Positions 1-15,695 of a DNA stretch of 64,000 nucleotides are shown here, piece by piece. The notes under the pieces are model-generated. The model ran no database searches, was not told where the DNA came from, and saw only the letters and a list, made by a program, of their open reading frames with translations. The stretch is from an uncultured Verrucomicrobia subdivision 3 bacterium. Lineage in GTDB: Bacteria; Verrucomicrobiota; Verrucomicrobiia; Limisphaerales; UBA11358. Location of the stretch: contig CAIKKJ010000034.1 in assembly GCA_903827955.1 (NCBI GenBank), forward strand, positions 2,946 through 66,945. The letters run 5' to 3'. Position numbers and translations under genes: made by a program. How positions within the stretch are numbered: position 1 is the stretch's first letter; the number at the start of each line of letters is the position of its first letter.

Positions 1-164
1 TCACCAGCGAGCGTGCGATTGCGAAGCACCTGCGTCATCGCCTTGTGACCCGCCACACGGCGAAAGCTGCCATCATCCAACAGCACGGGATTAGATTTCG
101 CCCAGGCGTTCCAAGCACGGCGCTGGTCGCGATTCAATTTTTTCCATTCGGTCGATAATTTCAT
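1..164 (-). CDS. hypothetical protein, N-terminal part only (continues beyond window start)
   Basis: ATG at 164-162 overlaps the stop of the upstream portal gene (ATGA at 161-164). Frame is open to position 1 (MKLSTEWKKLNRDQRRAWNAWAKSNPVLLDDG...). No family recognised. Confidence 0.4.
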   Translation of the reverse strand, partial: MKLSTEWKKLNRDQRRAWNAWAKSNPVLLDDGSFRRVAGHKAMTQVLRNRTLAG

Positions 165-1747
165 GGCGTCGTTTGTGGTTGTGCCGGAGGCGTTGCTACG
201 GGCGGGGTAGTGCCAGCATTAGGAAGACCCCCGGTCTGTTTCTCCTGACCGTTTTGAAAATTGCCCGTGCGGCTCGCACTGGGTTGTCCAGCTTTGACGA
301 GATTCTTTTCTTCATCATCCGTGCGTCCAGTGGGCAGGACTTCACCTTTACGGAAGAGATCAAACATGGTGGCCTGAGAGATGGCTCCAGCCTGCCAGGC
401 CGAGACGATGGCAGTGAGTTCCAGACTGGTCAGACCTTTGGCGGTGAAGTCAGTATTGATCTGGAGCAGGACGAGAGATTCACTGATGTCTTCGGGATAC
501 TGTTCAGTGGAGTTCCACCAATAGACCCAGCGAAGGACTTGGCTGATGGAGTCAGAGACAGACAAAGCCAGTGTCATCAAGATGCTATTCTCACCAGCTT
601 GACGGAGTTCAATGGCATCAGCAGTTTCACCGACACGTTTGGTGTCTTCCAGCATCCGGGAGCCGAGGACAGCCATGAGCCGTTCATCACGGTTTTGAGC
701 ATTCTCAAAGGTGGACAGACCATGACCTTTGAATTCAAGGAAGCCGGCGACAGCACCGACCGTGTCCGAGACCCAAGCCGTGCTGCTGCCGATGCGTAGC
801 TCCGAAGTTTTATCAAAGCCAGCGACCCAAGCGGTAGGCAGAGCAGTGAAGTGCAAGCCATGCTTGTAGTCAGCATCCAGACGGTAGTGATCCAGATTGA
901 CGGAGATGATGTCAGCCAGCGGCATCTTGTCCACGTCGGGCAGTGCGTTGCGTGGACCATGAAAGACAAAGGGAATCAGCGGCAGCGTTTTGCCCAGGCG
1001 GAGCGGCACACGGCTTTCCACCAGCGTCCATTTGGTCTTGGCTTGGCTGGCCTTTTGGCCGGGCCAGAAATTACCCATCCAAGAGGATTGGCTGTTCGCA
1101 CGGTGGCCGTCCGCAAGGACTTGCCAGACTTCGACAACGTAACGAGTGCTACCATCGGGCAGCACTTCCAACTTCAGCACGCGCACCGTTTCCGTAATTT
1201 TCACGGCGAACGGATCAGCATCGTCGGGACGTTCCACCATTTCACGGAGCGCCACCATCGTAACCACGTTGCGGCCATTGATGCGGGCAGCTTGCCAATT
1301 CAAAATATCCTCGGCGGCATAGCGGACAACATAAGCACGAGATTCACCATCGGCCTGCCAATCAATCAGCGTGCCACAGCGACCCACAGCAAGGACTTCA
1401 CCGACGACACCCTTGCAGAAAGTGAAGAGCGACGTGCCCATCAAATCCACGTCATCGGTGAAGACACGCAAGGCACCACCGACACCAGCATGGCGGTCAG
1501 GAAGTTTCACTTCGGGATCACGACGAAAGAGCAAACCGAGGAAGCCATCACAGGTGCGCGACGTGGCATTAAAGAAACAAGCACGGGATTTGTAGCCGAG
1601 ATAATCGTCATCCGTTTGGGAATCCAGACGAGGGAGATACATGATGCCACCAAGTTTCACGGCATCTTCACCAGCGATGACATCACGGGCGCGAAGCCAG
1701 GCAGGCAGGCTTGCGTCGTAATCAGGATGTGTCGAGTTCGCTGGCAC
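161..1747 (-). CDS. phage portal protein (DUF4055-like portal family), copy 1
   Basis: 528-aa ORF with GTG start. Roughly 55-60% identical by eye over its full length to ORF 14035-15558, which sits in portal-scaffold-capsid order. Shared blocks: STHPDYDAS..AW.RARDV.AGEDAVK, HYRL.ADYKHG.HFTALPTAWV.GFDK, SAWQAGAISQ.TM. Family name is from memory, not searched. Confidence 0.75.
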   Translation of the reverse strand: MPANSTHPDYDASLPAWLRARDVIAGEDAVKLGGIMYLPRLDSQTDDDYLGYKSRACFFNATSRTCDGFLGLLFRRDPEVKLPDRHAGVGGALRVFTDDVDLMGTSLFTFCKGVVGEVLAVGRCGTLIDWQADGESRAYVVRYAAEDILNWQAARINGRNVVTMVALREMVERPDDADPFAVKITETVRVLKLEVLPDGSTRYVVEVWQVLADGHRANSQSSWMGNFWPGQKASQAKTKWTLVESRVPLRLGKTLPLIPFVFHGPRNALPDVDKMPLADIISVNLDHYRLDADYKHGLHFTALPTAWVAGFDKTSELRIGSSTAWVSDTVGAVAGFLEFKGHGLSTFENAQNRDERLMAVLGSRMLEDTKRVGETADAIELRQAGENSILMTLALSVSDSISQVLRWVYWWNSTEQYPEDISESLVLLQINTDFTAKGLTSLELTAIVSAWQAGAISQATMFDLFRKGEVLPTGRTDDEEKNLVKAGQPSASRTGNFQNGQEKQTGGLPNAGTTPPVATPPAQPQTTP

Positions 1748-1920
1748 GCGGCGACTCTAGCACGGGATTTTTTTGCAATCGGATCACCCCAAAACTCACG
1801 ACTGCCAGAAGATGCCACACGCTGTCACACACCGTCACACGCTGCCAAACAAATTTCTCATTCCCGATTGACGATTATTTTATTTCTCCCGTCGGCAACG
1901 CGCGGCCGTGATGGCAGCAC

Positions 1921-2330
1921 AAAGTTAGTTCGCTGCGCTCAACAAAAATATCAGTTCGCGCTTTGCTCTGCGTCGCGCTCAACAATGACGAATCGCGCTC
2001 AAGTTCACGGTTTCCATTGTTCACGTTGTGCGGAGGTTTTATTGCTCGCTCTGCTCGGAGAATTGAGCCGCACATCAGGCGCGCACGCGGACGCCTGACG
2101 CTCATGCTCGGCAGTCCAGCGGCAGCCCGCTAAAGCGGTCTGCCACTGGCCATGCCGAGCACCGGCACGCCTTCATCGGCTCACGAGTGCCAACTTACGG
2201 CGTGCCTTTCGCTCCATCGCGTGCGCGTAGCACGGTTCAGGTTCGCGAATGTTAACGGCGCGCTTCATCATTCAGGTTCGCCACGCAACGGCGCGCTGGC
2301 AGGCATCGAACCCTCGTCGCTTCGCTCCTC
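1921..2330. repeat. copy A of a three-copy structured non-coding element (candidate ncRNA or att-associated element)
   Basis: Colinear with 4348-4850 and 16986-17388. Starts AAAGTTAGTTCGC. Contains paired segments 2075-2081/2092-2098, 2106-2113/2153-2160, 2116-2125/2140-2149, 2127-2130/2135-2138 and 2164-2171/2199-2206. No conserved ORF. Confidence 0.8.
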
Positions 2331-2395
2331 GACTGTGGTAAATGTATTCGCCGCACATTATGCGGCGATTAAGGCCCCAATTCACCGCACGCATC

Positions 2396-2426
2396 ACTTG
2401 ACTGATAACTTGACTGACACTTGACT
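2396..2426 (+). promoter_or_regulatory. three direct repeats of ACTTGACT (starts 2396, 2408, 2419)
   Basis: Period is 11-12 bp and each unit contains the -35-like hexamer TTGACT. Located between repeat copy A and the HEPN gene. Function (operator, iteron or promoter) is not determinable from sequence. Confidence 0.35.
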
Positions 2427-2555
2427 CATCTTTCTTCGGCTGACGGCGTGACCATATTGCCGCCAGCGATGGTTTCTGTTGCAGACATCATCGGTTTCCG
2501 TGATTCTGTGCCTGACCATAAAACTTTTCGGCTGAAGTTAGCGGGTGATCCATTT

Positions 2556-3095
2556 ATGTCGCGTGCATCCAACACATTTCTCGAAGCCATCAAGGACGCG
2601 GAAATCCTGCTCGCACAATTCGATGCCATCAACACGAAGCCGCCACCGCCCCACGCCGAGGTTCTAAAACGCGCCGGACTCATCATGGCTCTTACCGCCT
2701 GGGAAACTTACGTCGAAGACCGGGCTGCTGAAGCGCTGGAAGAACGCATCAAGGCTTTGTCTGGCAGTCCTTTTGCGGATTTGATCAAAAAGAAATTCCA
2801 GAAAGATTTGAAGCGCTTGAACAATCCCAACTCCACCAAGACCTGCAATTTGTTCATGGACTATTTGGGCATGGATATCGCGCAGCATTGGACCTGGACC
2901 AACATGGACGTGAAGATGGTGAAGCAGCGGCTCGACGACCTGCTTGCGAAGCGTGGCAGCGCGGTGCATCGCTCCAAGGCCGCGGCCGCCAGCCCTCAGA
3001 ATGGTCATTTGGTGAAGCGCGAGGAACTCGACAAGGGCATCAAGTTTTTGAAGACGCTGGTGGAGCGAAGTGAAAAGGCGTTCACTTCCGCCTGA
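2556..3095 (+). CDS. HEPN-domain protein (RiboL-PSP-HEPN-like)
   Basis: ORF is open from TTG 2421, but third-position GC rises only after ATG 2556. KRGSAVHRS fits the HEPN Rx4-6H motif. The WETYVEDR helix resembles RiboL-PSP-type HEPN proteins (recollection). Confidence 0.55.
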   Translation: MSRASNTFLEAIKDAEILLAQFDAINTKPPPPHAEVLKRAGLIMALTAWETYVEDRAAEALEERIKALSGSPFADLIKKKFQKDLKRLNNPNSTKTCNLFMDYLGMDIAQHWTWTNMDVKMVKQRLDDLLAKRGSAVHRSKAAAASPQNGHLVKREELDKGIKFLKTLVERSEKAFTSA

Positions 3096-4257
3096 CTTCA
3101 CTCAAGCTTTCGCCGGGCGTCAGGTGCGCCGGCTCTTCGAGGATGTCCAGCAGGGCATTGGCGCAATACACGCGACCACGTTTAGCGTCACCGACTTGCT
3201 TCACGATTTTCAACCGTTCCAGCCGTTCGATGGCGCGTTGCGCCGTGGTAAAGGCAAACCCCAGTTTTTCCGCCGCACCCTTCGCGGTGATGAACGGATT
3301 CGAGGCCAGCAGTTCCACCACGCGCAGCGGCGCGTGGGTGGAGTCGCCGGAGACTGTTTTCTGCCACTCGGCCAGCAGGGCGTTCATGCGGGTCGCCCGG
3401 CTCAAGGCGTCTTCCGACATGCGGGCCACGCCGAGCAGGAAGTATTCGAGCCATTCATTCCATTCGCCCCGCTCGCTGACACCCCGAAGCCCTTCGTAAT
3501 AATCGCGACGCGCCTCTTCAAAAAATGCTGAAAGATACAGCAGCGGTGTCGGCAGGATGCCGCGTTCGATCAGAAAGAGCGTGATGAGCAAACGCCCCAC
3601 GCGGCCATTGCCGTCAAGGAATGGATGAATGGCTTCGAATTGGTAGTGTGCCAGCGCAACGGTCACCAGTGGCGGCAGATCGGAGTCATGCACAAACTTT
3701 TCCCACGCCGCCAGGCAGGGCTCGATTTCAGCCGGTGGTGGCGGCACAAACGAGGCTGTCTCCGGCGTGCTGCCCGGTTTGCCGATCCAGTTCTGGATTT
3801 TGCGGAAGCGTCCGGGCATGGCCCGTTCGCCGCTGACACCGGTCATGAGTTTTTCATGCAGCTCCCGGATGATGCGGATGCACAGCGGCAGATCCTTCAG
3901 GCGCTTGATGCCATGTTCCAGCGCGATGACGTAGTTTCCCACTTCCCGCAAATCTTCGGGACTGCGTTCCACGACCGCGCCGGCTTCCGCCGCCAGCATT
4001 TCGCCGAGCGTCGCCTGTGTCCCTTCAATCTTGCTCGATAGCACGGCTTCCCGTTTTACGAATGGACGCATCAGCACATGCGGATTCGGCAGACGACCGC
4101 CTTCCCCCGCCAGCTTCCCAACCAGACGATCCGCCTCCGACAACACCCGCATCAGCCGCGGAGTCCAGATGATCTTCGGCGGCAAGGGTGCCGGCACAAA
4201 GGCGGCATATTTGCCCAGCGGCACTTTGCGTCCAGGAATGTTTAATTTGCTGGCCAT
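3082..4257 (-). CDS. Fic family protein (AMPylase-type, with N-terminal inhibitory motif and C-terminal wHTH-like tail)
   Basis: HPFLDGNGRVGRLL matches the Fic motif HxFx(D/E)GNGRxxR. SSKIEG matches the inhibitory (S/T)xxxE(G/N) motif. ATG 4257 (MASKLNIPG...) is preferred over the ORF opening at 4302. The 3' end overlaps the HEPN gene by 14 nt, convergently. Confidence 0.85.
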   Translation of the reverse strand: MASKLNIPGRKVPLGKYAAFVPAPLPPKIIWTPRLMRVLSEADRLVGKLAGEGGRLPNPHVLMRPFVKREAVLSSKIEGTQATLGEMLAAEAGAVVERSPEDLREVGNYVIALEHGIKRLKDLPLCIRIIRELHEKLMTGVSGERAMPGRFRKIQNWIGKPGSTPETASFVPPPPAEIEPCLAAWEKFVHDSDLPPLVTVALAHYQFEAIHPFLDGNGRVGRLLITLFLIERGILPTPLLYLSAFFEEARRDYYEGLRGVSERGEWNEWLEYFLLGVARMSEDALSRATRMNALLAEWQKTVSGDSTHAPLRVVELLASNPFITAKGAAEKLGFAFTTAQRAIERLERLKIVKQVGDAKRGRVYCANALLDILEEPAHLTPGESLSEVRRK

Positions 4258-4273
4258 AACGTTGCTTTCGGTC

Positions 4274-4302
4274 GTGATAATAGCACAACCTGCTATTATC
4301 AC
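4274..4302. promoter_or_regulatory. perfect 12-bp inverted repeat GTGATAATAGCA-caacc-TGCTATTATCAC upstream of fic
   Basis: Read directly from the sequence. Lies 17 nt upstream of the fic ATG (4257). Operator-like geometry. Confidence 0.5.
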
Positions 4303-4347
4303 AAAAGCACAAATACGCTAATAGCGGGATTCCTTGTTTTCACGGCT

Positions 4348-4850
4348 AAAATTGAGTTCGCTGCGCTCGACAGAATTTAAGTTCGCGCTGCACTTCGCTC
4401 GCGTGCTCAACAGGAGAACACGAACGCGCTCGGATTCACGGTCTCCACGCTCGAACGTTGTGCGGAGTAATGTTAGATCGCTCCGCTCACAGAATTGTCC
4501 CGCACATCAGGCGCGTGCGCGGACGCCTGACGCTCATGCTGGCGGCGGCGGCTAACGCCACCGCTACGCCAGCACCGGGCCGCCTTCACAGGTTTACGAA
4601 TGGTTTCTCACGGCGGCCCTTTCGCTTCCGCGCGCACGCGTCGAACGTCGCAGGTCATCGAACGGTTTCCGCGCGATCCAACCATTCGGGTTGGCGGATG
4701 ATTTAAGCGCGCGGCCAGGCGGGGAAAAGTTAGTGGATTGCTGACTCGTCGCTGTCGCTCCTCGCGGGGGGCGAACGCGCACTGCGTTTGCGGTCGCCTT
4801 TTTGTTTTCAGAGGCCGCGAGGCTTCGCCACGGCCAAGACACAGCAATAT
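4348..4850. repeat. copy B of the three-copy structured non-coding element
   Basis: Starts AAAATTGAGTTCGC. Paired segments: 4460-4465/4500-4505, 4507-4513/4524-4530, 4538-4552/4557-4573, 4577-4584/4612-4619, 4628-4635/4707-4714. Shares an extra 3' block (CGCGAGGCTTCGCC...CAGCAATA) with copy C only. Confidence 0.8.
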
Positions 4851-6020
4851 CACGCCCAGGCCGGCGGCTTGGGCGTGCCGGCCATGCAACAGTTCCCGGC
4901 TGTCACAGAGCGGACACTTGCGCTCGTGCCTCGCGCCAAGTATCCGCACTGTTCGGCCCGCGCCCGTGACGGACTCGTCAGTTTGCGCCCAAGCTGCCCG
5001 CCGGCTGTTATTGATGTCACGCACCACCAAAGCGATGGAACTTGCCATGTTGGTCAGCTCACAAATCTCCCCGTCCCCTGGTCTCATTTGATCCAGCCAA
5101 GCCCGCAAATTATCATGAACGGGCACAATTCGACGACTGGCCGTCTTTGATTTGGTGACGCGCACTACCACGTAATCTTTTGCCAATTGCAGGTCCGCCC
5201 ACTCCAGCCGTTGGAGTTCCGCATGGCGCACGCCCGCAAAAGCCCCGATCACCATGAATGGCTTAATCCGCTCCGGCGTGAAGCAAAGAATTTCAACCAG
5301 CTCTGCCGGCGTGAAAAATTCGGTTTCCGTCGGCGGCTCTTTGATCGCCGGCACCGCGCATAATTCGTCATGGTCCCGGGGCAAATACCGCCGCCGCATG
5401 GCGTATATGAATAATGAATTGATGGCCTTGCGCAGGTTGTTTTGCGAACACGCCCCCACACCTAGTCCCCGCAGCCACTCATTAATTTCAGGCCCGCGAA
5501 TATCGGTGATGTTCCCCTTGAACCGCTTTGTGAATTGTCCCAAGGCATGGCGCATGGACTTGATATAGCTGTCGGTCAGCAACGCCTCGTCTTTTGAATT
5601 CAGCAACTCCTCCACCACGTCCGCGACGGGCATTTTCAATCGGCCCGGTGCCCACTCCAGAAAGTAATCCACAGCCTCGTGCAAATGCACTGTGCCCAAT
5701 TTCTTCATGGCCTCCGCATACTCCATCGCCGCCGACTGGACACTCACGCCGAGCGGATCCAGATAGAACCGTGCCGCTTTATAGTCCAGCCGGTCGTTGG
5801 GACTTAATTCGAGCACGAGCCCCTCCTGCTTGTCCAATTTACCAGCTACAAATCTGGCCTCTTTTTTAGCTTTTTCAAAATCAGAAAAAACCGTCCGCTT
5901 GCGCATCCTGCCCAGATAATAACTGACAAAATAATCCACCCGTCCCTTATTCATGCAGCGATAGATTTTAACCTGCACGGAGCCTTTTTGGATCACGACT
6001 GGAAATGTTTCATCGTCCAT
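4608..6020 (-). CDS. tyrosine recombinase/integrase, probably 3'-truncated (reading frame runs into repeat copy B)
   Basis: ATG 6020 (MDDETFPVVIQKG...). Catalytic Arg box AFAGVRHAELQRLEWADL and beta-hairpin Lys (VTKSKTASRRIVPV) are present. No HxxR...GH...Y block follows. The last ~90 codons are antisense to repeat copy B and look non-protein-like. Confidence 0.6.
   Translation of the reverse strand: MDDETFPVVIQKGSVQVKIYRCMNKGRVDYFVSYYLGRMRKRTVFSDFEKAKKEARFVAGKLDKQEGLVLELSPNDRLDYKAARFYLDPLGVSVQSAAMEYAEAMKKLGTVHLHEAVDYFLEWAPGRLKMPVADVVEELLNSKDEALLTDSYIKSMRHALGQFTKRFKGNITDIRGPEINEWLRGLGVGACSQNNLRKAINSLFIYAMRRRYLPRDHDELCAVPAIKEPPTETEFFTPAELVEILCFTPERIKPFMVIGAFAGVRHAELQRLEWADLQLAKDYVVVRVTKSKTASRRIVPVHDNLRAWLDQMRPGDGEICELTNMASSIALVVRDINNSRRAAWAQTDESVTGAGRTVRILGARHERKCPLCDSRELLHGRHAQAAGLGVILLCLGRGEASRPLKTKRRPQTQCAFAPREERQRRVSNPLTFPRLAARLNHPPTRMVGSRGNRSMTCDVRRVRAEAKGPP
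4770..4808 (+). terminator. candidate intrinsic terminator inside copy B
   Basis: GGCGAACGC (4770-4778) pairs with GCGGTCGCC (4790-4798) with one mismatch, followed by TTTTTGTTTT. This segment is an insertion specific to copy B. Confidence 0.45.
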
Positions 6021-6150
6021 GCTTGATTTTACAACGCCGCAACCTCTTTTGCAGCCTGTCCCCAGCACTGGGGACAAGACGAAAATTCCCGCTGTGTTAA
6101 TCTAAAGTCGTTGGGAGTAGTGACCCAACCGAAAAACAAGTGTTGAAGAA

Positions 6151-6182
6151 GCCCGGCGTAGTGTCCGGGCTTTTTTCTTTTT
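6151..6182 (+). terminator. intrinsic terminator (GCCCGG-cgtagtgt-CCGGGC + TTTTTTCTTTTT)
   Basis: Hairpin and T-run read directly. No plus-strand gene lies upstream, only two further hairpins (6058-6075, 6104-6128). Confidence 0.6.
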
Positions 6183-6443
6183 ACGAAGCAGTTGCCACCG
6201 CCGGAAACTTCACTGCATCCCGCCATTGCGCCACATCGTCCACGCGCTCCCGCTGATAAATCTGGTGAATCAGTTCCGACGAATGGTTCACCAGCCGCAA
6301 GCCCACCCGATTATCACACGACCCGGCCCATGCCGCTCATCCGAAAATTCTTCCCTTCGGATTTTCGTCCGGTCCGGGCAGCCGGCGTGTTCAGTTTCCG
6401 CTTTCGCTATTTCCGCGTTGAAAATCTGGCCCGTGCGGCGGTT

Positions 6444-7514
6444 TCAAAAGTGAAACTCCGGTTCCGGCGGCGATCCTTTCCGCCGCTTTGGCACCTTGAG
6501 CTTTTCCGCCTCCGCTTTCCAGCGGGCGATCATCTTCTGGATCTGCCCGCACTGGTAACGCATCCGCAGTAAATCATCCATCAACTCGCGCCGTATCTGC
6601 CCGGCCAGCGTCTCATGATCGCTGCGGCGGGAAAAATCCCACGCCGGTTTCCTGCGCTGCTGGGTGATCTGCCGTTTGATTTCGCGCAAGGAAGTTTTCA
6701 ATTGCGCCGTGATCCGTTGCAGCAGCGAGGCGCTGGTGTTCGCGGTGGTGCCGCTTTCACCAATCTCGCAAAGCGTGAGAATGACTTCCAGTTGCTCCGC
6801 GTCGCCCGCTTCGTAGGCAATCTGCGCCTCATGCCACCATTCGGTCTTCTGTGCCGTCATTTCCTGCTGACTGTCCGGATGCAATTGGCGCACCAGCTTT
6901 CGATAAAGTTCCTTGAGCCGTTTGGACGCATGCGGCGGTGGCATTGGCTCGCCCGGCGGTTCGTCCTCGGGACCGAGATAGTCTCGGGGATGCGCATCCG
7001 CCCCGAAACGACGATGGAATTCTTTCTTAATTTTCTCCAGCAGGGGATCCTCGTCGAAGTCTTCAGATTCCGGTCCCGACCCAAAGGCATCCCGCTTCCC
7101 TTCCGCATTGTCGCCGGCGGGCGGGGGAGGCGACGAGCCGGGGTTTTCACGGCGATCCATTACCCGCTGATAGGCCCGCGCGTCGGAAAACCCGCCGAAC
7201 TGGGCCTCATAATCGACCTGTTCGATGAGCAGACTATCCCTTTCCATCTGCAGATTAAGTTCCCGGAGTTCCGTGAGCAGCGCTCCAAAATGACTGTGCA
7301 TCCAGCGCATGAACTGCGGCTCATCCGTCTGGTGAAATTGGTCGAGCACACTCCGCGATTTTGCCAGATCGCGCAACGCCTTCTCGTAGTCCTTCTTGAT
7401 CTTTTTCCGGATGCCCGTGCCATCCACCCGCACCATCGCGCGGCAATGAATGGCCGGTTTGGCATCATCAACGGCTTGGCTGTTGATCGGTTTTCTAGTC
7501 GCGCGGCGTGGCAT
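6444..7514 (-). CDS. J-domain-like protein
   Basis: 356 aa. KELYRKLVRQLHPDSQQE contains the HPD tripeptide in a J-domain-like helix context. The rest is charged and coiled-coil-like. Start not verified. Confidence 0.45.
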   Translation of the reverse strand: MPRRATRKPINSQAVDDAKPAIHCRAMVRVDGTGIRKKIKKDYEKALRDLAKSRSVLDQFHQTDEPQFMRWMHSHFGALLTELRELNLQMERDSLLIEQVDYEAQFGGFSDARAYQRVMDRRENPGSSPPPPAGDNAEGKRDAFGSGPESEDFDEDPLLEKIKKEFHRRFGADAHPRDYLGPEDEPPGEPMPPPHASKRLKELYRKLVRQLHPDSQQEMTAQKTEWWHEAQIAYEAGDAEQLEVILTLCEIGESGTTANTSASLLQRITAQLKTSLREIKRQITQQRRKPAWDFSRRSDHETLAGQIRRELMDDLLRMRYQCGQIQKMIARWKAEAEKLKVPKRRKGSPPEPEFHF

Positions 7515-7658
7515 TGAAGAAAGCGTGGCAAAGTATCACTTCGCCCCCGGTGCCGCCACCACATTACCACACGCCCCGGACAACGGCATTCCTCCCGAAA
7601 ATCATCATGCGGATTTTCGTATTGTCCGGGCATCTGGTAGCCGATCCGGCACGAGCTT

Positions 7659-9326
7659 TCAGCCTTTCAGCAACTTCAGCAATCGCTTCTTGTCCTTCTG
7701 ATTCTTCTTGCCCGTCATACCCTCGATAATTTTCCGCATCTCCGCTTTCTGTTTATCCGCCTCGGCCTCGGTTGCAAGTGGCGCCGCCACCGACACGACC
7801 TTTTCTTCCTCCGCCCCATAGGTCAGCAGCGCCGGCATTGCCTTGTTCAGCGCCGTTCGGAACGCCTCGCGCCCCGGCTGGAAATAATGTTTCAGCACAA
7901 TGTCAGTCGTCTTGTGCCCTGTCACCTTCTGCACCAGTTCCAGCGCCACCCCGGCCGTCAGCGCCAGCGTCACCCACGTCACGCGGAAGCTGTGGAAATC
8001 CCGCACGCTCGCCGATCGCAAGCCATGTTTCCGTTCCACATACAAACCGGCTTTTTCCATGCCGTCTTTCACGCTGTCGCCTTTGTTCGCGTGGCTGGAG
8101 CCGCGCACAATCAGGCACCCGATGGCCTGTTCAATCTCGTTGAGATAACCCGAGACGCTGCCTTTGCTCACATTGACCGCCGCCATTACAGATTGGATGT
8201 TGTTACCATCCATGTAGTGCCGGAACACCATCGCCATCCGGGATCGTTTCTCGCCTTCCGGCAACGCCGCGATGTATTTCTCGCCTCGCTCCCGCGCCAG
8301 CGCGTCGGAAACTTCCGGCAACGCTTTCGTTTCTTCCCCCGCCTCCACTGGTTTTCTGAGCCCCACCGCCAGAATCTTTTTCACGCGCCAGGTGATGCCA
8401 TCCGGGTTTTCATCATACATCTCCGCTTGGTCAGGAAAAACATAACCGGTGAGTTTCGGCCCTGCCTCTTTTGCCAGCTTTTTCAGCTCCGCTGCCAGCA
8501 TGGGGAAAATGGGGATGCTAACGGTCTGACCGGTCTTCGAGGTTTTTACCGTGATGAAATGGTTTTTCAAATCCACATCCTTCCATTCCAGCAGACAACA
8601 ATCCCCGCGCCGCATGGCGGTGCACATTCCCGTGATGATGATCGGCCGAATGAAATCATCGTCCTTCGCCGCCTCATTGATTGCCCCCAGTTCTTCCGGC
8701 GAGAATGGCTGGCGAAACACAGTTTCCGTTTCCTTCGTCGGTGTGTCGGCAAAATGGTTGATGGCGCCCGCCGGCAGCAGATGCTTAAAAGTTGCCCGTA
8801 GCAGCTTGAGCGTGTCATTCCAGGTTTTGCCCGTGACGTGCCGCCCAGCCTCCTCGTCCAGAAAAGACCGGGCCATCGTTCCCGTAACGAAGGCGATTTC
8901 GACCACCTTGGGATTTTTCTTCTGCACGAATTCTACAAACCGGTTTAAGGTGGATTCGCACTGCTTCGCGTAGCGGGCATTCGGCGCTCGTCGCCGCGCA
9001 ATCTTCCCCCATTCCGCCGCTAGGTTTTCCAACTTCACCGACTTGATGGTTTCTCCAGTCTCATGCTCATACAATTTCTTTATCAAACGCACCGCCCCCT
9101 GTTTTGAGCGCGCCTCCTCGACGATTTGATTCAGCTTCGCTTGGGCGGCAACGCGCGAACATTCAAACGCCGTGTCGCCCGCTTCTTTCAGCGATTGGGA
9201 TTGCGGAGGCGTGCCGGCGATTTTAACGCCGAGATTGGCGCAGAATCGTTTGCCATTAATTTCATAACGGCCATACCAGAAGGGACGCAGTTGGCCGCTT
9301 AATTTCCATCGCAATTCGAGGGGCAT
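7659..9326 (-). CDS. tyrosine recombinase/integrase (phage integrase family) with a long insertion in the catalytic domain
   Basis: Catalytic signature is complete: R (TAMRRGDCCLLEW), K (VKTSKTGQTV), HSFRVTW, TGHKT, KHYF. A ~150-aa insert with an HTH-like segment lies between the K and HxxR boxes. Confidence 0.85.
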   Translation of the reverse strand: MPLELRWKLSGQLRPFWYGRYEINGKRFCANLGVKIAGTPPQSQSLKEAGDTAFECSRVAAQAKLNQIVEEARSKQGAVRLIKKLYEHETGETIKSVKLENLAAEWGKIARRRAPNARYAKQCESTLNRFVEFVQKKNPKVVEIAFVTGTMARSFLDEEAGRHVTGKTWNDTLKLLRATFKHLLPAGAINHFADTPTKETETVFRQPFSPEELGAINEAAKDDDFIRPIIITGMCTAMRRGDCCLLEWKDVDLKNHFITVKTSKTGQTVSIPIFPMLAAELKKLAKEAGPKLTGYVFPDQAEMYDENPDGITWRVKKILAVGLRKPVEAGEETKALPEVSDALARERGEKYIAALPEGEKRSRMAMVFRHYMDGNNIQSVMAAVNVSKGSVSGYLNEIEQAIGCLIVRGSSHANKGDSVKDGMEKAGLYVERKHGLRSASVRDFHSFRVTWVTLALTAGVALELVQKVTGHKTTDIVLKHYFQPGREAFRTALNKAMPALLTYGAEEEKVVSVAAPLATEAEADKQKAEMRKIIEGMTGKKNQKDKKRLLKLLKG

Positions 9327-9329
9327 AAT

Positions 9330-9358
9330 AGGTGTCTTTCAAGGGTTAAGAGACACCT
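9330..9358 (-). promoter_or_regulatory. 8-bp stem hairpin (AGGTGTCT...AGACACCT) abutting the integrase start codon
   Basis: Inverted repeat read directly. Ends 3 nt upstream of the ATG at 9326. Could be an operator or a translational hairpin. Confidence 0.3.
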
Positions 9359-9464
9359 AAAACATACAGCAAAACCCCGAACCGATTCAAGGAAAAAACC
9401 AACCAAACCACCAACCATAAGCCCTAAGCTGACACAAAAAGCCATATAAAGCCCATATTTTGCG

Positions 9465-9522
9465 TAAGCTCGTCAGGCTCATAACCTGAAGGTCGTTGGT
9501 TCAAATCCAGCCCCCGCAACCA
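9465..9522 (+). tRNA. tRNA-Met (CAT) 3' fragment: anticodon arm, variable loop, T arm, acceptor 3' strand and CCA; the 5' acceptor strand and D arm are missing
   Basis: Anticodon stem TCAGG/CCTGA (9473-77/9485-89), loop CTCATAA. T arm GTTGG-TTCAAAT-CCAGC (9495-9511). CCCCGCA-A-CCA ends at 9522. The required 5' strand TGCGGGG is absent upstream. Confidence 0.65.
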
Positions 9523-9528
9523 ATTTCC

Positions 9529-9563
9529 GGCCTTGAGACTCACGTTTCAAGGCCGTTTTTGTT
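9529..9563 (+). terminator. intrinsic terminator after the tRNA fragment
   Basis: GGCCTTGA (9529-36) pairs with TCAAGGCC (9547-54), followed by GTTTTTGTT. Confidence 0.7.
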
Positions 9564-9681
9564 GGGTTTTATGAGATTTCCCCGAATTGGCCTCACGCTT
9601 CTGAAAAGTGCCGAACACCCTGAATTGCGCCGGACAAATCACCCACAACCGCACACACAAATCACCCACACACACAATTCG

Positions 9682-10305
9682 TCACTTCATTTCTTTGTTC
9701 GCATCTGCCAAACCGCGTAATTGGCCGTGACGATGAGCAAAAAACCAAAGGCCAACCGCCGCAGCAACAGCGCCCAAAATCAAAAGCTCGTTACCGACGA
9801 TCAGCGACGGAAGCACCATAAGCGCAATGCCGCCGGCCAGAATTGCAACGCTCGTCGTCACGCTGCCGATGATGACTTGCAACGGAGGATAAAAGATGGA
9901 CGCCAGGCCGAACAGGAACATGGCGACGCCGACCCAAACAATTCCCTTGAGGCTCGCCAGCTTTGCGCTCAATTCGCGCGCCGTGTCTTTTTGAGCCGCG
10001 CCCAATTCCGTCTTGGCCCGCGTTTCTTCATGCTCGACGACCGGCATCGGCGCGCTGACAACCACCACTTGGTTGCTGGCGGACTCGAGCCGCGAACCGG
10101 CCGGCACGGTGTAGCTCCGCGTTTTCACCGTCTCTTGATCCTGCCGCGAGGCTTGCGCCGGGTTGTCGCCTTGCACGACGGTTTGACCGATGACACCGGA
10201 CGTGGAGGCGCGGCCACCCTTCAACGGAGCCAGATTGCAGCCGCAGAGCAAACCCGCCGCCGCGATGACAGCAATATCAATCAGCACAAATTTGGTTTTC
10301 GACAT
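9682..10305 (-). CDS. membrane protein, lipoprotein-like N-terminus, three C-terminal TM helices
   Basis: N-terminal AAGLLCGC lipobox-like signal and hydrophobic C-terminal third. Last gene of the head-module operon. Confidence 0.5.
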   Translation of the reverse strand: MSKTKFVLIDIAVIAAAGLLCGCNLAPLKGGRASTSGVIGQTVVQGDNPAQASRQDQETVKTRSYTVPAGSRLESASNQVVVVSAPMPVVEHEETRAKTELGAAQKDTARELSAKLASLKGIVWVGVAMFLFGLASIFYPPLQVIIGSVTTSVAILAGGIALMVLPSLIVGNELLILGAVAAAVGLWFFAHRHGQLRGLADANKEMK

Positions 10306-10307
10306 AA

Positions 10308-10628
10308 TTATTTTCCTTCCTGAAATCGGCGCAGTTCAAACGCGCAGTCATTAAGCGCCGCCGTGTTGTGGTCAATGCAGACGGCCAACTTCATCGCCGT
10401 CTCATTTTGCTTTTCGATGATTTGCGTCAGGGCCGCATGATGCTCGTCGCGCAACGCCTTGTGATCCGAAATCACGGTTTGAAGCTGTTGCACCAGCCAA
10501 TAAATCACCACGCCGCAAACGAGCAGCAGCAGGCAAAACGCCGCGAGAAACAACCAGCGGTCATTCATGCTGGCAGCGTGATCCACCGCTTGGAGAAAAT
10601 CGGCCGTGTTCATATTGGTCATATTCAA
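10308..10628 (-). CDS. small membrane protein (one TM helix + coiled coil)
   Basis: 106 aa. Has the WLFLAAFCLLLLVCGVVIYWLV helix. Start overlaps the stop of the upstream gene by 4 nt. Confidence 0.5.
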   Translation of the reverse strand: MNMTNMNTADFLQAVDHAASMNDRWLFLAAFCLLLLVCGVVIYWLVQQLQTVISDHKALRDEHHAALTQIIEKQNETAMKLAVCIDHNTAALNDCAFELRRFQEGK

Positions 10629-11179
10629 ACGCGTTGCAGTCGCACCATGCCGCTGGTCGCGCTCATCGGCACACCGTATTTCGCCAGCATCACCTGCGCG
10701 ACTTGCGACAAGACCGGACGGCGATCCGTTTTGTCGTAACCGGTTTGGTTGCCACCGGTGTTTTGATATTTCAATCCCTCACCGGCAGGCGCGGCGGTGC
10801 GGTCGGCAATCAAAAGTTCCCGCGCCATTTCACACGTCGCCTGGACAACGGCTTTCGGCACGCTGTCGAAGCGAACGTAATCCGATGGAATCGGCAGCAA
10901 CGCTTGCAGCGGGACATGAATCGCATCGGGTTCAGGACACCGGGCGCGAGGCCATTGCAAACCTTGCACGGCGTTCGCGCGCGTGCCGTTGAACTGAAAT
11001 TCCGCGTCAACCAACCGCGACGCCATCACGAGCGCCACGGCCTTTTGAGCGTCCGTCGCCGCCGTCCATGCCGAGGCGTAAAGATGGCCGTCGTGATAGG
11101 CGTTGCCATCGGTCAAGTCCGCGTAAGCGTTGGCATCCACCAATCCCGCGCCGGTTTCTTTGATCAGGGTGAGCGACAT
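10625..11179 (-). CDS. phage head-tail adaptor-type protein (DnaT-like / gp6-like family)
   Basis: Pattern ANAYADL..GNAY......AWTAATDAQKAVALVMASRLVD..F.F.G.......LQWPR is as I remember it for this phage family. Lies in the capsid operon. Confidence 0.5.
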   Translation of the reverse strand: MSLTLIKETGAGLVDANAYADLTDGNAYHDGHLYASAWTAATDAQKAVALVMASRLVDAEFQFNGTRANAVQGLQWPRARCPEPDAIHVPLQALLPIPSDYVRFDSVPKAVVQATCEMARELLIADRTAAPAGEGLKYQNTGGNQTGYDKTDRRPVLSQVAQVMLAKYGVPMSATSGMVRLQRV

Positions 11180-11188
11180 AAAGTTTAG

Positions 11189-11845
11189 CTAAATGACCGC
11201 AGACCAAGGCGACCAGACGCCGGCCACCTGATAACAGCAGGTGCAGCTTCCAAATTGCTGCGCGCTTTGCGCCTGTGTCGGCGATAAAACATCGTAGGCA
11301 GCGTTCGACTGATCCGCGCTGTCCGCCCAGCCCTGTATGGAACCGGAACCGTCATAGCCGCCATCGTTTTGAGCGAATCGCCAAACGCTCGTAGCCACCG
11401 GCGCGGTGCCCAAGAAATAACCGCCCACGCTCACCAAAGTGGGAGCATCCAGTGGCGCAGGAGCATCGCTCGGATGCACCGCGTTACTGTGTTGAGTGAT
11501 TTCCTTGCCGTCCGCGTCCACGCCGACGATGTAATGTAGTTCCTCGCCATCCGGCGCAAACTGCCGCGCATCGCCATACATCCAATAGCCGGTCGGCAGG
11601 AAATAAGTCGCGCCGCCGTCGAGACTCAGCCAGACATTCCATTTGTAAGGATTCGGCAAGTCCCAATCCCATTGCAGCAAGTCAGGCCAAGCCGCGCGCA
11701 AGACAGGCGGCGGCAACAAATGTCCTTTGCGCCGTTGCTCCGCCAGCCATGTCCGCCGTTGCAGCGGCGTCCAGGGCGCGTTACGGCGCGGCGGTTTTGG
11801 CAGGGCTTGCGACATCGTCAGGCTTGGAAATTTTGGCCGGTTCAA
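11189..11845 (-). CDS. hypothetical phage protein
   Basis: 218-aa ORF in the head operon. Start uncertain (alternative ATG at 11815). No family recognised. Confidence 0.45.
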   Translation of the reverse strand: MNRPKFPSLTMSQALPKPPRRNAPWTPLQRRTWLAEQRRKGHLLPPPVLRAAWPDLLQWDWDLPNPYKWNVWLSLDGGATYFLPTGYWMYGDARQFAPDGEELHYIVGVDADGKEITQHSNAVHPSDAPAPLDAPTLVSVGGYFLGTAPVATSVWRFAQNDGGYDGSGSIQGWADSADQSNAAYDVLSPTQAQSAQQFGSCTCCYQVAGVWSPWSAVI

Positions 11846-11960
11846 CCGCTGGCGTTTTCACCACAGGTTGAACCGGCGCGGTTTTGGTCGGAAGCGGCGG
11901 CGTGGCCTCGATAAAGGGACGCCGCTTTCGCCGAATGATGGGAAACAATTTGTCCATGAA

Positions 11961-12188
11961 TCAGATCGCGTTAGCGCCGATGGCAATTTGTTTCCAGTTT
12001 GTGCCGTCCGAAATGGCGAGGCACGGCACGGAGCCAGTGCCGCCAACGGACAGATAGATCATGCGGCGCGGAAATTTCGCCGCCGTGACGCCAGCAGCGA
12101 CCGCCGCCGCGACGTTGGTAAATGTCGGAATCTGGATTTGTTCACCCGAACGAATCCGCTCGAAACTGCGAGGTTGAAGTTTGCCCAT
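11961..12188 (-). CDS. small hypothetical phage protein
   Basis: ATG 12188 (MGKLQPRSFERIRSGEQIQIPTF...) avoids overlap with the capsid gene. 75 aa. Confidence 0.45.
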   Translation of the reverse strand: MGKLQPRSFERIRSGEQIQIPTFTNVAAAVAAGVTAAKFPRRMIYLSVGGTGSVPCLAISDGTNWKQIAIGANAI

Positions 12189-12238
12189 AATTTTAATTGG
12201 TAAAGCGGCGTGCCGGCGCGAACCGGCACGCCAATGGT

Positions 12239-13249
12239 TCAGATGTTGTGTGTCACGGCCACGACCGGGACGTTTTTGTTTTCCCACACGCGCACCCAGT
12301 TGGCGGCGGTGGCCAGTTCAGCGTTGGTCGGATTTGCACCGGCCACGCTCGCGCTGGTGAACTTCACACCGCGAGGGTGCAGGATGAAGCGGCGACGATT
12401 GACGAGGAACGTGTCGCTGTTGAGAGCGTCACGCGCCATTTCCATGCCTTCCGTGCCGTGACCGCCTTCGACAGGCGCACCGTTCAGATCGGCAAAGCCC
12501 ATACCGAACGCACCGTTGCCGAATAGATAGGTCGTATAGACCACGCCGTCAGTCGTGCCAGCGCGCGACGGGCAGCCGTCATCCACGATGACCCGACGGC
12601 CTTGGAACGTCTTGATTTGAGTTTCACCCTGGCTGTCCGGGATAAAATCAATCAGGTCGAGCTTGCGCAGCGCGGCTTCCACTGCGGAGTGCATCGCCAC
12701 GGCCACGAGCCGGTCGCCACGGTCGCCGAGGCGTTGCGTCGCATCCACGAAGGTTGCGCCGTTAAGCCGGGTGGCCGAGGTTTGCGCCGCGACGCTTTCG
12801 GATTGGATCGCCAACAGATTGCCCGCCATGCTCGCCGCACCGAAAACGCCGGTGAGGGAGTTGATGAGCATATACTGGTTCTGACGGTTCCAGTAATCGG
12901 CGATAAAGTCCGCCAGCGCCAGCGCCGGATCGTCACCGGCAACTTGCGTCGCCAGATGATTCCACGACCACGCATTGCCGTCGTTGTGGATGCGGGCGAT
13001 GTCCTGGTCAGCGACCAGTTTCGCCGGCACGAGCGGTGCCGAATCGGAAAGCGGCTGGCGGTTGCCCGTCAGATCATTCCAGTGGGGCATGTTGACTTGC
13101 GTGCCGCCGAGGGCCGCGCGCTCGTCATAGTCCGGCGTGCGGATGACAATGCCGGATTGAAACAGGTCGGATTTTTCCGCCGTGCGTTGAAGGACGTAGC
13201 CAGCGAATTGCGCTGGCACGATGATGTCTGCAAGTTGTGTCTTTGCCAT
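12239..13249 (-). CDS. major capsid protein (HK97-fold, N4-gp56/T7-like type)
   Basis: 336 aa, directly after the scaffold gene. The N-terminus MAKTQLADIIVPAQFAGYV resembles this capsid family (recollection). Confidence 0.7.
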   Translation of the reverse strand: MAKTQLADIIVPAQFAGYVLQRTAEKSDLFQSGIVIRTPDYDERAALGGTQVNMPHWNDLTGNRQPLSDSAPLVPAKLVADQDIARIHNDGNAWSWNHLATQVAGDDPALALADFIADYWNRQNQYMLINSLTGVFGAASMAGNLLAIQSESVAAQTSATRLNGATFVDATQRLGDRGDRLVAVAMHSAVEAALRKLDLIDFIPDSQGETQIKTFQGRRVIVDDGCPSRAGTTDGVVYTTYLFGNGAFGMGFADLNGAPVEGGHGTEGMEMARDALNSDTFLVNRRRFILHPRGVKFTSASVAGANPTNAELATAANWVRVWENKNVPVVAVTHNI

Positions 13250-13272
13250 AAACTAATTTTGGTGTTGTGACC

Positions 13273-14028
13273 TCACGCGGCGGCTTTCAAACGGGCAGCC
13301 AGCGCAGGATCGGTTTTCTGCAATTTCATTTGCTCCGTGAGATTCCACGTTTCCTTGCGGAACGGGTTTTTCGCGGACCGGTTGCCAGCCCCACCGGAGC
13401 CGGAGCCGGCAGCACCGCTGCCAGCGTTTGCTTCAAACAGGTGCGGCGCGTCGGACACCAACGCATCCACCCATTCGGCCAAAGTCAAAGCAGCCGCGCC
13501 GTCCTTGCCCGTGCGGGCAGTCTGGCCGTCGGCCTCAAAAGCCTGCGGCACGCCGTTGACGAGCTTGAACGTCTGGCGAGCACGCGAAGTGATGTCAGGA
13601 ATCGCCGTCGGCCGCAGACCACGTTTCGTGGCTTCGGTCACGACGGCTTGATCAATCTGAATTGCCGACAAGCGGCCAAGCAGCGTGTCACGCTCGCCGG
13701 TCACGGCGGAAAATTGTTTGTCCCAATCCGTCTTGGCCGTCTTGAGCCGCGCGTCCAAGACCTCTTGAAATTTGCCGTCCTTCAGCCGTTGTTCATCTTC
13801 CAAACGCTGCTTGTCGGCGGCGAGCTGACGCACGGCGTCAGGGTCAATGCCTTCAAACTTCTTGAGCTGGTTCGTCAGCGTGATGTTGTTCTGGCGGAAC
13901 TCATCCAGCTTGGTTTGACTCACGACGCCATCGGCATCCAGCACGAACGCACCGTCGCGCTCGACGTAAAAGGATTGATGTTCAGCAGGGATTTCCTGCT
14001 TCGTTGCATATTTGAATTTCAGGGGCAT
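13273..14028 (-). CDS. phage scaffolding protein
   Basis: 251 aa, lying between portal and capsid. Charged coiled-coil middle, Gly/Ser-rich segment and basic C-terminus. Confidence 0.65.
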   Translation of the reverse strand: MPLKFKYATKQEIPAEHQSFYVERDGAFVLDADGVVSQTKLDEFRQNNITLTNQLKKFEGIDPDAVRQLAADKQRLEDEQRLKDGKFQEVLDARLKTAKTDWDKQFSAVTGERDTLLGRLSAIQIDQAVVTEATKRGLRPTAIPDITSRARQTFKLVNGVPQAFEADGQTARTGKDGAAALTLAEWVDALVSDAPHLFEANAGSGAAGSGSGGAGNRSAKNPFRKETWNLTEQMKLQKTDPALAARLKAAA

Positions 14029-14034
14029 AAACTT

Positions 14035-15558
14035 TTAATTCACGGTTACAGGGTTGGCGTTCACATCACCGGGAACCGTCGGCGTGACGGGAACAGTTGG
14101 TTTGGTTTTCTTCTCGCTGGCGAGCAAGGCTTGCTCTTCTTCGTTCGTGCGACCGGGAGCGATGACCTCGCCAGCACGGAACAGGTTGAGCATCGTGTCC
14201 TGACTGATGGCGCCAGCTTGCCACGCGGAGACGATGGCGCTGATTTCCTGATACGTCATGCCAGCGAAATTGAAATCCGTGTTCAGGCTGGCAAGCACGA
14301 GGTCCGCACCGATGGCGTCAGGAATCGGCTCGGTCGAGTTCCACCAATAGACCCAGCGAAGCACCTGCGTCAGCGACGCGCTGACGCTCAAGGAAATGGT
14401 GTTCAAGATGGAGTTCTCGCCAGATTGACGGAGTTCGATGGCGGCAGCGGTTTCACCGACACGCTTGCGGGATTCGAGCATCCGCGTGCCGAGGACGGCC
14501 ATCAGTTGCTCGTCACGATCCATCGCACGCTCAAAGGTGGACAGACCTTGACCGTGAAATTCCAAGAAGCCAGCCGTGGCACCAGGAGTTTCCGCGACCC
14601 ATGCCGTGCTGCTACCAATGCGCAGCGTCGAAGCCTTGTCAAAGCCACTCACCCAAGCCGTCGGCAGGGCGGTGAAGTGCATACCATGCTTGTAGTCGGC
14701 ATTGAGACGGTAGTGATCGAGGTTGACGGCGATGATGTCTTCCAGCGGAATCTTGTCCACGTCAGGCAGCGAGTGACGCGGGCCGTGAAAGACAAAGGGA
14801 ATCAGCGGCAGAGATTTTCCAAGACGCAGCGGCGTGACGGTTTCAATCAGCTTCCATTCGAGACGTGTGCGAGCACGTTGACCGGAGGTGACGGGATTCT
14901 TGGGCAGCTTGCGCCAGACATCCACTTGATAAGTCCAATCAGTTTGCTCGTCGTTGCTAGACGATTGCGAAGGGACGAGTTTCAGGACGCGCAGTTGCGG
15001 GTAGGCAGTCGGACAGAAGGAGTCAGTGACCGAGGCAGTGTCTTGAAAAGTTTCTTGCAGGACTACCAGCGTCAGGACGTTGCGACCATTCACGCGCTGC
15101 GTCTGCCAGTTGATGATGTTTTCAGCAGCGTAGGCGACAGCATAGGCGCGTGGTTCAGTCTCGTTGTTCCAGTCAATCAGCGTGCCAGCACGACCGACGT
15201 TGATGATTTCCGTGACGAGCTTCTTCGAGAAGGCAGTCAGTGGCGTGCCAAGCATATCGGCATCGGCGACGAACTCAGCAAGCGAAGAACCGACACCGTT
15301 GGACTTGTCGGGCAGTTTGAAGGTTGGATCACGACGGAAGACCAGACCGACGAAGCCATCAGCCGTGCGAGCAGAAGCGTTGAAGAAAGAAGCACGGTTT
15401 TTGTAAGCGAGATATTCCTTGTCGTCCTGACAGTCCAGACGTGGCAGATACTTTTCAGCAGCAGCTTTGACGGCATCCTCACCGGCGAAGACATCACGGG
15501 CACGTTGCCATGCAGCGATGCTGGCGTCGTAATCAGGATGTGTCGAGTCCACTGGCAC
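14035..15558 (-). CDS. phage portal protein (DUF4055-like portal family), copy 2
   Basis: 507 aa with GTG start. Paralogue of 161-1747. First gene of a portal-scaffold-capsid operon. Confidence 0.8.
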   Translation of the reverse strand: MPVDSTHPDYDASIAAWQRARDVFAGEDAVKAAAEKYLPRLDCQDDKEYLAYKNRASFFNASARTADGFVGLVFRRDPTFKLPDKSNGVGSSLAEFVADADMLGTPLTAFSKKLVTEIINVGRAGTLIDWNNETEPRAYAVAYAAENIINWQTQRVNGRNVLTLVVLQETFQDTASVTDSFCPTAYPQLRVLKLVPSQSSSNDEQTDWTYQVDVWRKLPKNPVTSGQRARTRLEWKLIETVTPLRLGKSLPLIPFVFHGPRHSLPDVDKIPLEDIIAVNLDHYRLNADYKHGMHFTALPTAWVSGFDKASTLRIGSSTAWVAETPGATAGFLEFHGQGLSTFERAMDRDEQLMAVLGTRMLESRKRVGETAAAIELRQSGENSILNTISLSVSASLTQVLRWVYWWNSTEPIPDAIGADLVLASLNTDFNFAGMTYQEISAIVSAWQAGAISQDTMLNLFRAGEVIAPGRTNEEEQALLASEKKTKPTVPVTPTVPGDVNANPVTVN

Positions 15559-15695
15559 GAGCGGACTCTAGCACGGGTTTTACAACGATTTTGCCTGACC
15601 CAAAAGACTCACTAGACGGCTGCTGACACAAGATGTCAGCAGATGACCGATGCAGACGGTTTTTTTAAGATTTTGTATTTGACGGGTTTCAAGAT

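Follow-up and report, generated by a model that had tools for sequence, protein, structure and literature searches.

The window analyzed here, a stretch of 64 kb of DNA, contains three copies (A, B, and C) of an element that probably, judging by comparison of its sequences, encodes on the plus strand a structured non-coding RNA of about 350 to 480 bases that has not been described before. Each copy would consist of a core folded as a four-way junction, a 5' extension, and a conserved tail, followed by a terminator in about half of the cases. That about half of the copies have no terminator counts against the RNA-gene reading. The original prediction had preferred a structured RNA or hairpin-forming DNA to a mosaic of REP/BIME-like palindromes, and this preference is supported by the comparative evidence. 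Several of its helices show the supported covariation that is expected of a structured non-coding RNA in the generic sense.

All coordinates and sequences on which the prediction was built proved exact when the window was rechecked (Table 1), and repeat and motif searches revealed no copies in the 64-kb window other than A, B, and C. The mean column identity in an alignment of the three copies is 71%. H2 reads in copies B and C as had been quoted, and copy A carries another sequence at this place that is complementary all the same: positions 2106 to 2113 pair perfectly with 2153 to 2160, positions 2116 to 2125 pair with 2140 to 2149 with one C/A opposition, and the tip lies at 2127 to 2138. 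As described, H3 is formed by GGCACGCC/GGCGTGCC in copies A and C and by GGGCCGCC/GGCGGCCC in copy B, and H4 by CAGCGCGC/GCGCGCTG in copy C and by CCGCGCGC/GCGCGCGG in copy B. The terminator specific to copy B was also present. A hairpin of 46 nt had been reported for copies A and B and as cleanly missing from copy C; this pattern stands, but the stem is invariant, and therefore the hairpin carries no covariation evidence.

Table 1. Positions of the three copies of the RNA element, their parts, and neighboring genes in the window
Feature	Position	Strand	Remark
Portal gene (DUF4055) of left-hand element	161-1747	-	Divergent from copy A
Copy A of RNA element	1919-2331	+	Covariance-model match, 135.9 bits, E 1.7e-37
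Copy A, 5' boxes	1928-1942 and 1954-1962	+	
Copy A, optional 46-nt hairpin	2028-2073	+	
Copy A, P1 5' strand	2091-2099	+	
Copy A, J1/2 linker	2100-2107	+	GCTCATGC
Copy A, extended H2	2106-2160	+	
Copy A, H3	2164-2206	+	
Copy A, J3/4 linker	2205-2213	+	CCTTTCGCT
Copy A, H4	about 2214-2299	+	
Copy A, P1 3' strand	2298-2306	+	
Copy A, 3' motif	2312-2331	+	Without canonical terminator
Cargo region between copies A and B	2421-4302		
HEPN RiboL-PSP gene	2421-3095	+	Cargo between copies A and B
SoFic-type Fic defense gene	3082-4302	-	Cargo between copies A and B; PADLOC E 1.7e-115, full-length match
Copy B of RNA element	4345-4808	+	Covariance-model match, 242.1 bits
Copy B, box 1	4356-4370	+	
Copy B, split box 2	4381-4411	+	
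Copy B, 46-nt hairpin	4460-4505	+	
Copy B, P1 5' strand	4523-4531	+	
Copy B, H2	4538-4573	+	
Copy B, H3	4577-4619	+	
Copy B, H4	4627-4714	+	
Copy B, P1 3' strand	4714-4722	+	
Copy B, 3' motif	4744-4764	+	
Copy B, intrinsic terminator	4770-4808	+	
Block X	4895-4986		Conserved, follows the RNA in most loci; 99% identical to L206
Inserted prophage-like/satellite-like element	4987-17322	-	12.3 kb; ends in copy C
Truncated integrase-like ORF (489 aa)	to 6077		Left edge of inserted element; extends across block X and copy B by chance
Intact tyrosine integrase (555 aa)	7659-9326		Within inserted element
Capsid gene	12239-13249		Inserted element
Scaffold gene	13273-14028		Inserted element
Portal gene	14035-15558		Inserted element
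NS endonuclease gene	15696-16799		Inserted element
Copy C of RNA element	16984-17329	+	Covariance-model match, 241.6 bits
Copy C, box 1	16993-17007	+	46-nt hairpin absent from copy C
Copy C, box 2a	17019-17027	+	
Copy C, P1 5' strand	17112-17120	+	
Copy C, H2	17127-17162	+	
Copy C, H3	17166-17207	+	
Copy C, H4	17215-17302	+	
Copy C, P1 3' strand	17301-17309	+	
Copy C, truncated 3' motif	17315-17329	+	Host-side flank joined from about 17323

Approximately 100 homologous copies with 67 distinct cores were collected from bog, lake, and soil metagenomes, IMG/VR viral contigs, and MAGs of Verrucomicrobia subdivision 3. A scan of genome contigs with an invariant 16-mer was unspecific: 5 matches were real, and most of the 120 matches listed were due to chance. 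The true relatives found in this way lay in IMG/VR viral contigs and MAGs, two of which were labelled Verrucomicrobia subdivision 3. A search with a gapped pattern gave 78 metagenome loci (bogs, lakes, and soils), and homologues of the portal protein led to 11 additional viral loci. Over all collected loci, nhmmer returned 106 hits, with 55 unique near-full-length copies. Covariance model R1 (218 positions, 61 pairs) yielded 79 matches, 67 of them distinct, and full copies scored between 60 and 259 bits.

Applied to 49 distinct cores, RNAalifold recovered H2, H3, and H4 together with a long-range helix, P1, which the original prediction had not seen. P1 pairs CGCCUG with CAGGCG directly after H4 (GUCAGGCG) and closes a four-way junction, P1/H2/H3/H4. 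It encloses the hairpin arms H2 and H3 and the large H4 in a core of about 215 to 235 nt, in which the unpaired junction linkers GCUCAU, ACC, and UUUCGCU are highly conserved. In the R1 alignment of the 67 distinct sequences, 93.2% of cells are joined by standard pairs, and changes on both sides were found in 33 of the 61 pairs (217 cells). When partners were slid by 1 to 3 columns, pairing fell to 30 to 45%, with no more than 21 pairs and 52 cells double-changed, and 0 of 500 shuffles reached the observed measures of pairing and covariation. The claim that compensatory substitutions keep several helices paired, made from the three copies, was thus upheld on an alignment enlarged with homologues retrieved by the covariance model.

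Among the 67 sequences, P1, H2, H3, and the outer part of H4 are each 97 to 99% paired, and double-sided changes are numerous in H2, H3, and outer H4. Fully complementary sequence versions number four for H3 and at least six for H4, and H2 is longer and rewritten in A-type copies. P1 itself is 97.8% paired, with double changes in three of its six pairs; a C-G to U-A covariation occurs in 12 sequences, and the helix is completely rewritten in the L219 and L172_5996 types. This was not the case for H1 (TCAGGCG/CGCCTGA), which had been described as conserved. Its pairing of 79.6% is indistinguishable from that of shuffles, and the outer three pairs are broken in 16 to 32 of the 67 sequences. H1 was therefore rejected as a conserved helix, and its 3' strand pairs instead in P1. 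Likewise, the G-T pair that copy C had been thought to have in H1 turned out to be a compensated U-A pair of P1, in which positions 17113 to 17120 (TGCCTGAC) pair with 17301 to 17308 (GTCAGGCA).

It should be noted that the folding energy of a single copy did not differ significantly from that of shuffles (z of -0.48 for the plus strand and -1.24 for the minus strand), so that the evidence for the fold is comparative and not thermodynamic. The element is non-coding. Variable columns show no codon periodicity (P = 0.90), and 266 of the 286 indels are not multiples of three. Larger insertions were observed in several relatives. Divergent copies in L145 (6835 to 7118) and L146 (8279 to 8560) carry 64 additional nt between P1 and H2, repeating the linker motif CCCATGC/CTCATGC, and the usual 3' motif is missing from them. 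In a Verrucomicrobia subdivision 3 MAG (L031, 1377 to 1643 and 2621 to 2885), the RNA gene is split by approximately 1 kb of inserted DNA, and an insertion in L163 (4098 to 4308) cuts it inside H4.

Upstream of the core lies a conserved 5' extension of about 130 to 180 nt with two to three boxes of the form GYUCGC-N3-GCUCRA, and an additional GYTCGC-N3-GCTCRA box is located in the loop of the optional 46-nt hairpin. The second box of the extension is split by an insertion of 18 to 60 nt in many copies; an insertion of variable length within a box argues against a fixed operator in double-stranded DNA. On the plus strand, box 2a (GUUCGCGC) is able to pair with GCGCGGAC just 5' of P1. Since the changes in this pairing are one-sided and of the wobble type only, it is compatible with a helix and stops short of proving one. 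Pairing of the 5' boxes with the 3' motif was considered and rejected, the two being alike and not complementary. Downstream of P1, the conserved tail reads CCUCGUCGCU-nn-CGCUCCUCG. Of 48 unique copies, 22 have a Rho-independent terminator, a hairpin followed by a U-run, which starts 1 to 5 nt past the 3' motif and occurs in several stem variants. The stretch that separates box 1 from the portal or nuclease gene contains a conserved leader, TTCGACRCAGGCRRCCAGRTGAAGTYGTG, at positions 16800 to 16990 and in the upstream leaders of many loci, and the same region holds four spaced GGYAAT(T/G)NG repeats. Leader and repeats are candidate regulator sites for divergent promoters.

The RNA gene is part of a family of temperate, phage-like elements found in Verrucomicrobia subdivision 3, where it heads a region of variable accessory genes; it is also found beside ordinary host genes. 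Across dozens of loci, it is always oriented divergently to a DUF4055 portal gene, after which come scaffold and Gp13-like capsid genes, and a nuclease or Fic gene is sometimes placed between the RNA element and the portal gene. On viral contigs, the genes for AAA_25, TerS, and TerL are followed by a block on the opposite strand, headed by the RNA, and then by the portal gene; in L149 and L155, the sequence is TerS, TerL, cargo and RNA on the opposite strand, and portal. Many loci contain two or three copies that are 1.3 to 5 kb apart with unrelated cargo between them. Here and elsewhere, this cargo includes SoFic-type Fic, HEPN RiboL-PSP, DUF4172-Fic, DUF1349-like, Big_7, and DUF5615. Two copies are host flanked: L096 has a short-chain dehydrogenase (SDR) gene upstream and shares its downstream histidine-kinase flank with the window, and L163 has a rhamnosidase gene upstream.

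Several further sequence features were observed around the copies. The start region of the Fic gene (4274 to 4302) contains a perfect inverted repeat, GTGATAATAGC-N7-GCTATTATCAC, which overlaps a promoter-like site and is probably an operator. Three CTTGACT direct repeats with a spacing of 11 to 12 nt (2397 to 2426) lie just before the HEPN gene, about 65 nt past the 3' motif of copy A, and a CTTGACT triplet also occurs upstream of RNA2 in L204; these repeats could be binding sites for a regulator or arm-type sites for a recombinase. Downstream of the RNA, another 90 to 450 nt of sequence, blocks X and Y, are kept in host-flanked as well as phage-borne loci (L206, 7571 to 7966; L149, about 8700 to 9128). 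They appear to be non-coding because their homologues differ by frame-shifting indels.

The two portal genes of the window are paralogous, with 67 to 76% DNA identity over aligned stretches, and thus point to two different, related elements in tandem. The inserted 12.3-kb element carries head-completion genes and two tyrosine-recombinase genes, and no terminase, tail, or replication genes were found among its genes. It resembles a satellite able to form capsids or a prophage in decay. Its intact integrase has an unusually long insertion of approximately 100 aa or more in the catalytic domain. The portalX type found elsewhere is always followed by RNA1, cargo, and RNA2. Three alternative gene assignments were discarded. 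The region or block X was rejected as coding for the C terminus of the adjacent integrase, as catalytic motifs are absent in every frame and homologues carry frame-shifting indels. The same motif and indel evidence led us to reject an integrase ORF completed across a circular junction (SSV-type split). The ORF at 17606 to 18133 was not accepted as a gene; it overlaps the histidine-kinase gene, and its tblastn hits are conserved flank DNA.

Immediately after CTCCTCG, the sequences diverge sharply into at least four flank classes. In 14 loci, the 3' motif of 21 to 23 nt is repeated alone 190 to 480 nt downstream with about 95% identity, followed by a variant hairpin; as at integration targets, inserted DNA is thus flanked by a direct repeat of the 3' end. 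Relative to L206, the window contains an insertion, the 12.3-kb element, which separates block X from the host flank. The right end of this element is copy C, fused inside its tail to host-side sequence. The left junction (4986/4987) shares only CTCGTC with the right junction and is not reciprocal, and the adjacent integrase ORF is truncated. Of the attL and attR junctions of this element, the right one alone is clean. Integrase genes lie 4 to 11 kb from the RNA in L170, L189, and L227; in L189, about 5 kb separate the RNA from both the integrase and the host junction. It is established that tyrosine integrases target the 3' ends of tRNA, tmRNA, and some sRNA genes (PMC3603311). By analogy, our findings suggest that the 3' tail of the RNA gene doubles as a recombination or attachment hot spot for mobile DNA and defense genes, and CCTCGTCGCTnnCGCTCCTCG may be the attP/attB crossover segment for elements such as the one at 4987 to 17322. 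We infer this role, which is probably not universal given the nonreciprocal left junction and the distance of integrase and host junction from the RNA in L189. Successive elements or their remnants would pile up at the tail, each bringing its own copy of the RNA, which would explain why the window has three copies and why RNA-cargo-RNA arrays occur elsewhere.

The same arrangement could arise if pairing took place at the DNA level. The element would then be an oversized relative of attP or attC, a recombination site folded as single-stranded DNA or as a cruciform and recognized by the tyrosine recombinases of the elements, and it would mark cassette boundaries instead of encoding an RNA. We consider this explanation unlikely. 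It would account for copies that bracket variable cargo in RNA-cargo-RNA arrays, for the 3' motif acting as a direct repeat, and for the presence of tyrosine recombinase genes nearby, but the integrases differ among loci and are often kilobases off. The composition of the helices is also consistent with it. The four robust helices are nearly purely Watson-Crick, G.U and A.C being equally rare (9 and 8, respectively, of about 2,270 cells), as if both strands or DNA paired, and H2 keeps an unpaired C/A. However, the lack of G.U is weak evidence, because most double changes are transversion flips that have no wobble intermediate, and other helices are strand specific and rich in G.U. A terminator on the plus strand directly after the element would also be unexpected for a DNA site, as would the long-range P1 and a four-way junction with conserved linkers; we know of no att sites in which a long-range helix of 190 to 260 nt closes a four-way junction with conserved unpaired linkers. 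A broader role in recombination, which we regard as slightly more doubtful still, is that of a cassette platform for phages, built around a structured RNA gene beside the portal gene. The tail, possibly together with the junction folded as RNA or single-stranded DNA, would then be the site where tyrosine recombinases capture and shuffle accessory or defense cassettes (SoFic, HEPN, and others) and whole satellite-like elements by integron-like or RNA-specified recombination.

If an RNA is made, its strand has to be assigned. The original prediction had called the strand ambiguous, with the terminator leaning toward plus. That lean was borne out, although the C.A mismatch in H2 and the energies point toward minus. 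The mismatch is conserved in 43 of 62 sequences and would be a G.U pair on the minus strand, and for 36 of 49 sequences the minus-strand fold is the more stable one by a small margin, with slightly better alifold energies too. Neither the counts of G.U versus A.C nor the alifold energies decided the matter. A promoter search and upstream alignments revealed no convincing sigma-70 promoter upstream of the element. In the inner H4 helix and in a 5' helix, P0, switches between G.U and G-C or A-U are seen on the plus strand only. Together with the unidirectional terminator and with host-flanked copies that have no minus-strand gene to lead, these switches distinctly favor the plus strand over the minus strand.

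A functional minus strand would provide a structured leader of the portal/head-gene operon, with an antitermination or regulatory role, or an independent minus-strand RNA. The element is always upstream of a portal or nuclease gene and faces it, and on the minus strand the C.A of H2 turns into G.U to G-C covariation; the alifold and minimum free energies are also slightly better, the minus strand being the more stable one in the 36 sequences mentioned. Nevertheless, this possibility appears about as slim as that of a cassette platform. The terminator works in the plus direction only, the host-flanked copies L096 and L163 have no minus-strand gene downstream and face the 3' end of the upstream gene, and copy B faces the Fic gene, which appears to have its own promoter and operator. 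Furthermore, pairs in P0 and inner H4 would become C.A mismatches in tens of sequences.

Given a structured domain followed by an intrinsic terminator, a cis-acting leader, in which a riboswitch or attenuator (aptamer plus terminator) controls the downstream cargo, was also considered, and we judge it very improbable. H1 and P1 are mutually exclusive in A-, B-, and C-type sequences, but most homologues lack H1. Several genes downstream run in the same direction as the element (the HEPN gene after copy A, and genes in L149 and L189), whereas downstream genes as a whole are mutually unrelated and often on the opposite strand, a pattern that does not fit a cis regulator, and no co-oriented gene lies downstream of copy B or of the host-flanked copies. 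A REP/BIME-like mosaic of palindromes, or a chance or recently duplicated repeat devoid of function, can practically be dismissed in spite of the GC-rich palindromic segments and the three copies within 16 kb, because dispersed copies of the kind that were to count against a structured RNA are absent from the window (three in 64 kb, all in prophage-like DNA and none in the 46 kb that belong to the host), about 100 copies from many environments share a fixed order, spacing, and synteny, and the copies, 71% identical, nonetheless keep their pairing, the long-range helix, and the conserved linkers.

A plus-strand RNA gene thus remains the preferred explanation. With low confidence, we propose that the RNA may work in trans for the phage or lysogen, by binding proteins or serving as a scaffold; alternatively, and equally tentatively, its C/U-rich single-stranded tail could pair with ribosome-binding sites. 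The element would add a well-supported family of structured RNAs of fairly large size, from a phylum that, like its phages, has been little studied. Its clean four-way junction and conserved linkers, together with approximately 70 diverse sequences, make it suited to structure determination. It bears on the role of large orphan prophage RNAs and on the way in which accessory and anti-phage defense genes gather at fixed hot spots of phage genomes. Should the 3' tail prove to be a genuine attachment site, mobile elements would carry a complete, structurally maintained copy of their own RNA target, which would imply that the RNA is useful to the element itself.

Comparison to known RNAs gave no relatives. 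The 4,227 models of Rfam 15, including tmRNA, RNase P, 6S, SRP, ROOL, GOLLD, pRNA, and riboswitches, produced no match at gathering score anywhere in the window; with E values of up to 10 allowed, only chance-level hits were obtained on copies B and C (E of 1.7 to 4.4, far below the gathering score). ARAGORN found no tRNA or tmRNA in the window, nothing similar was present in INPHARED phage DNA, and a full-text literature search revealed no prior description of the RNA element. The pRNA of phi29, a three-way junction RNA of approximately 120 to 174 nt, binds the portal connector in packaging. Like pRNA, the RNA described here would be a structured RNA encoded by phages, and it is genetically linked to the portal gene; unlike pRNA, it has host-flanked copies, it does not match the Rfam model, and its link to the portal is one of synteny.

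The attC sites of integrons are single imperfect hairpins of 57 to 141 bp that act as folded bottom-strand DNA. They resemble the element in that structure is conserved more than sequence, in a conserved unpaired base, and in units placed between variable cassettes near a tyrosine recombinase. In contrast, the unit described here measures 350 to 480 nt, is highly conserved in sequence, and combines a four-way junction with conserved linkers and a terminator of its own. The element sequence contains no GTTRRRY/RYYYAAC pair of attC boxes, and no IntI-type integrase was identified.

ROOL and GOLLD are large multi-helix non-coding RNAs of phage and prophage DNA that are supported by covariation and have no assigned function. 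The likeness lies in a large structured non-coding RNA located in phage or prophage DNA. The element differs from them in its smaller size, its architecture, its host phylum, the lack of a match to their Rfam models, its fixed synteny with the portal gene, and the multiple copies that flank cargo. The genes for tRNA, tmRNA (ssrA), and the sRNAs ryeB and ryeE that serve as att sites likewise have their 3' end duplicated as a short direct repeat and show tandem accretion of elements or remnants, with mobile elements carrying homologous sequence (PMC3603311). Whereas such elements carry a 3' fragment only, those described here carry a complete, diverged, and structurally maintained copy, which comprises a four-way junction of approximately 220 nt with long extensions and would be a putative att site. 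The RNA element belongs neither to the att-site RNA genes of the tRNA/tmRNA kind nor to ROOL and GOLLD, and by its behavior these two groups are its closest counterparts.
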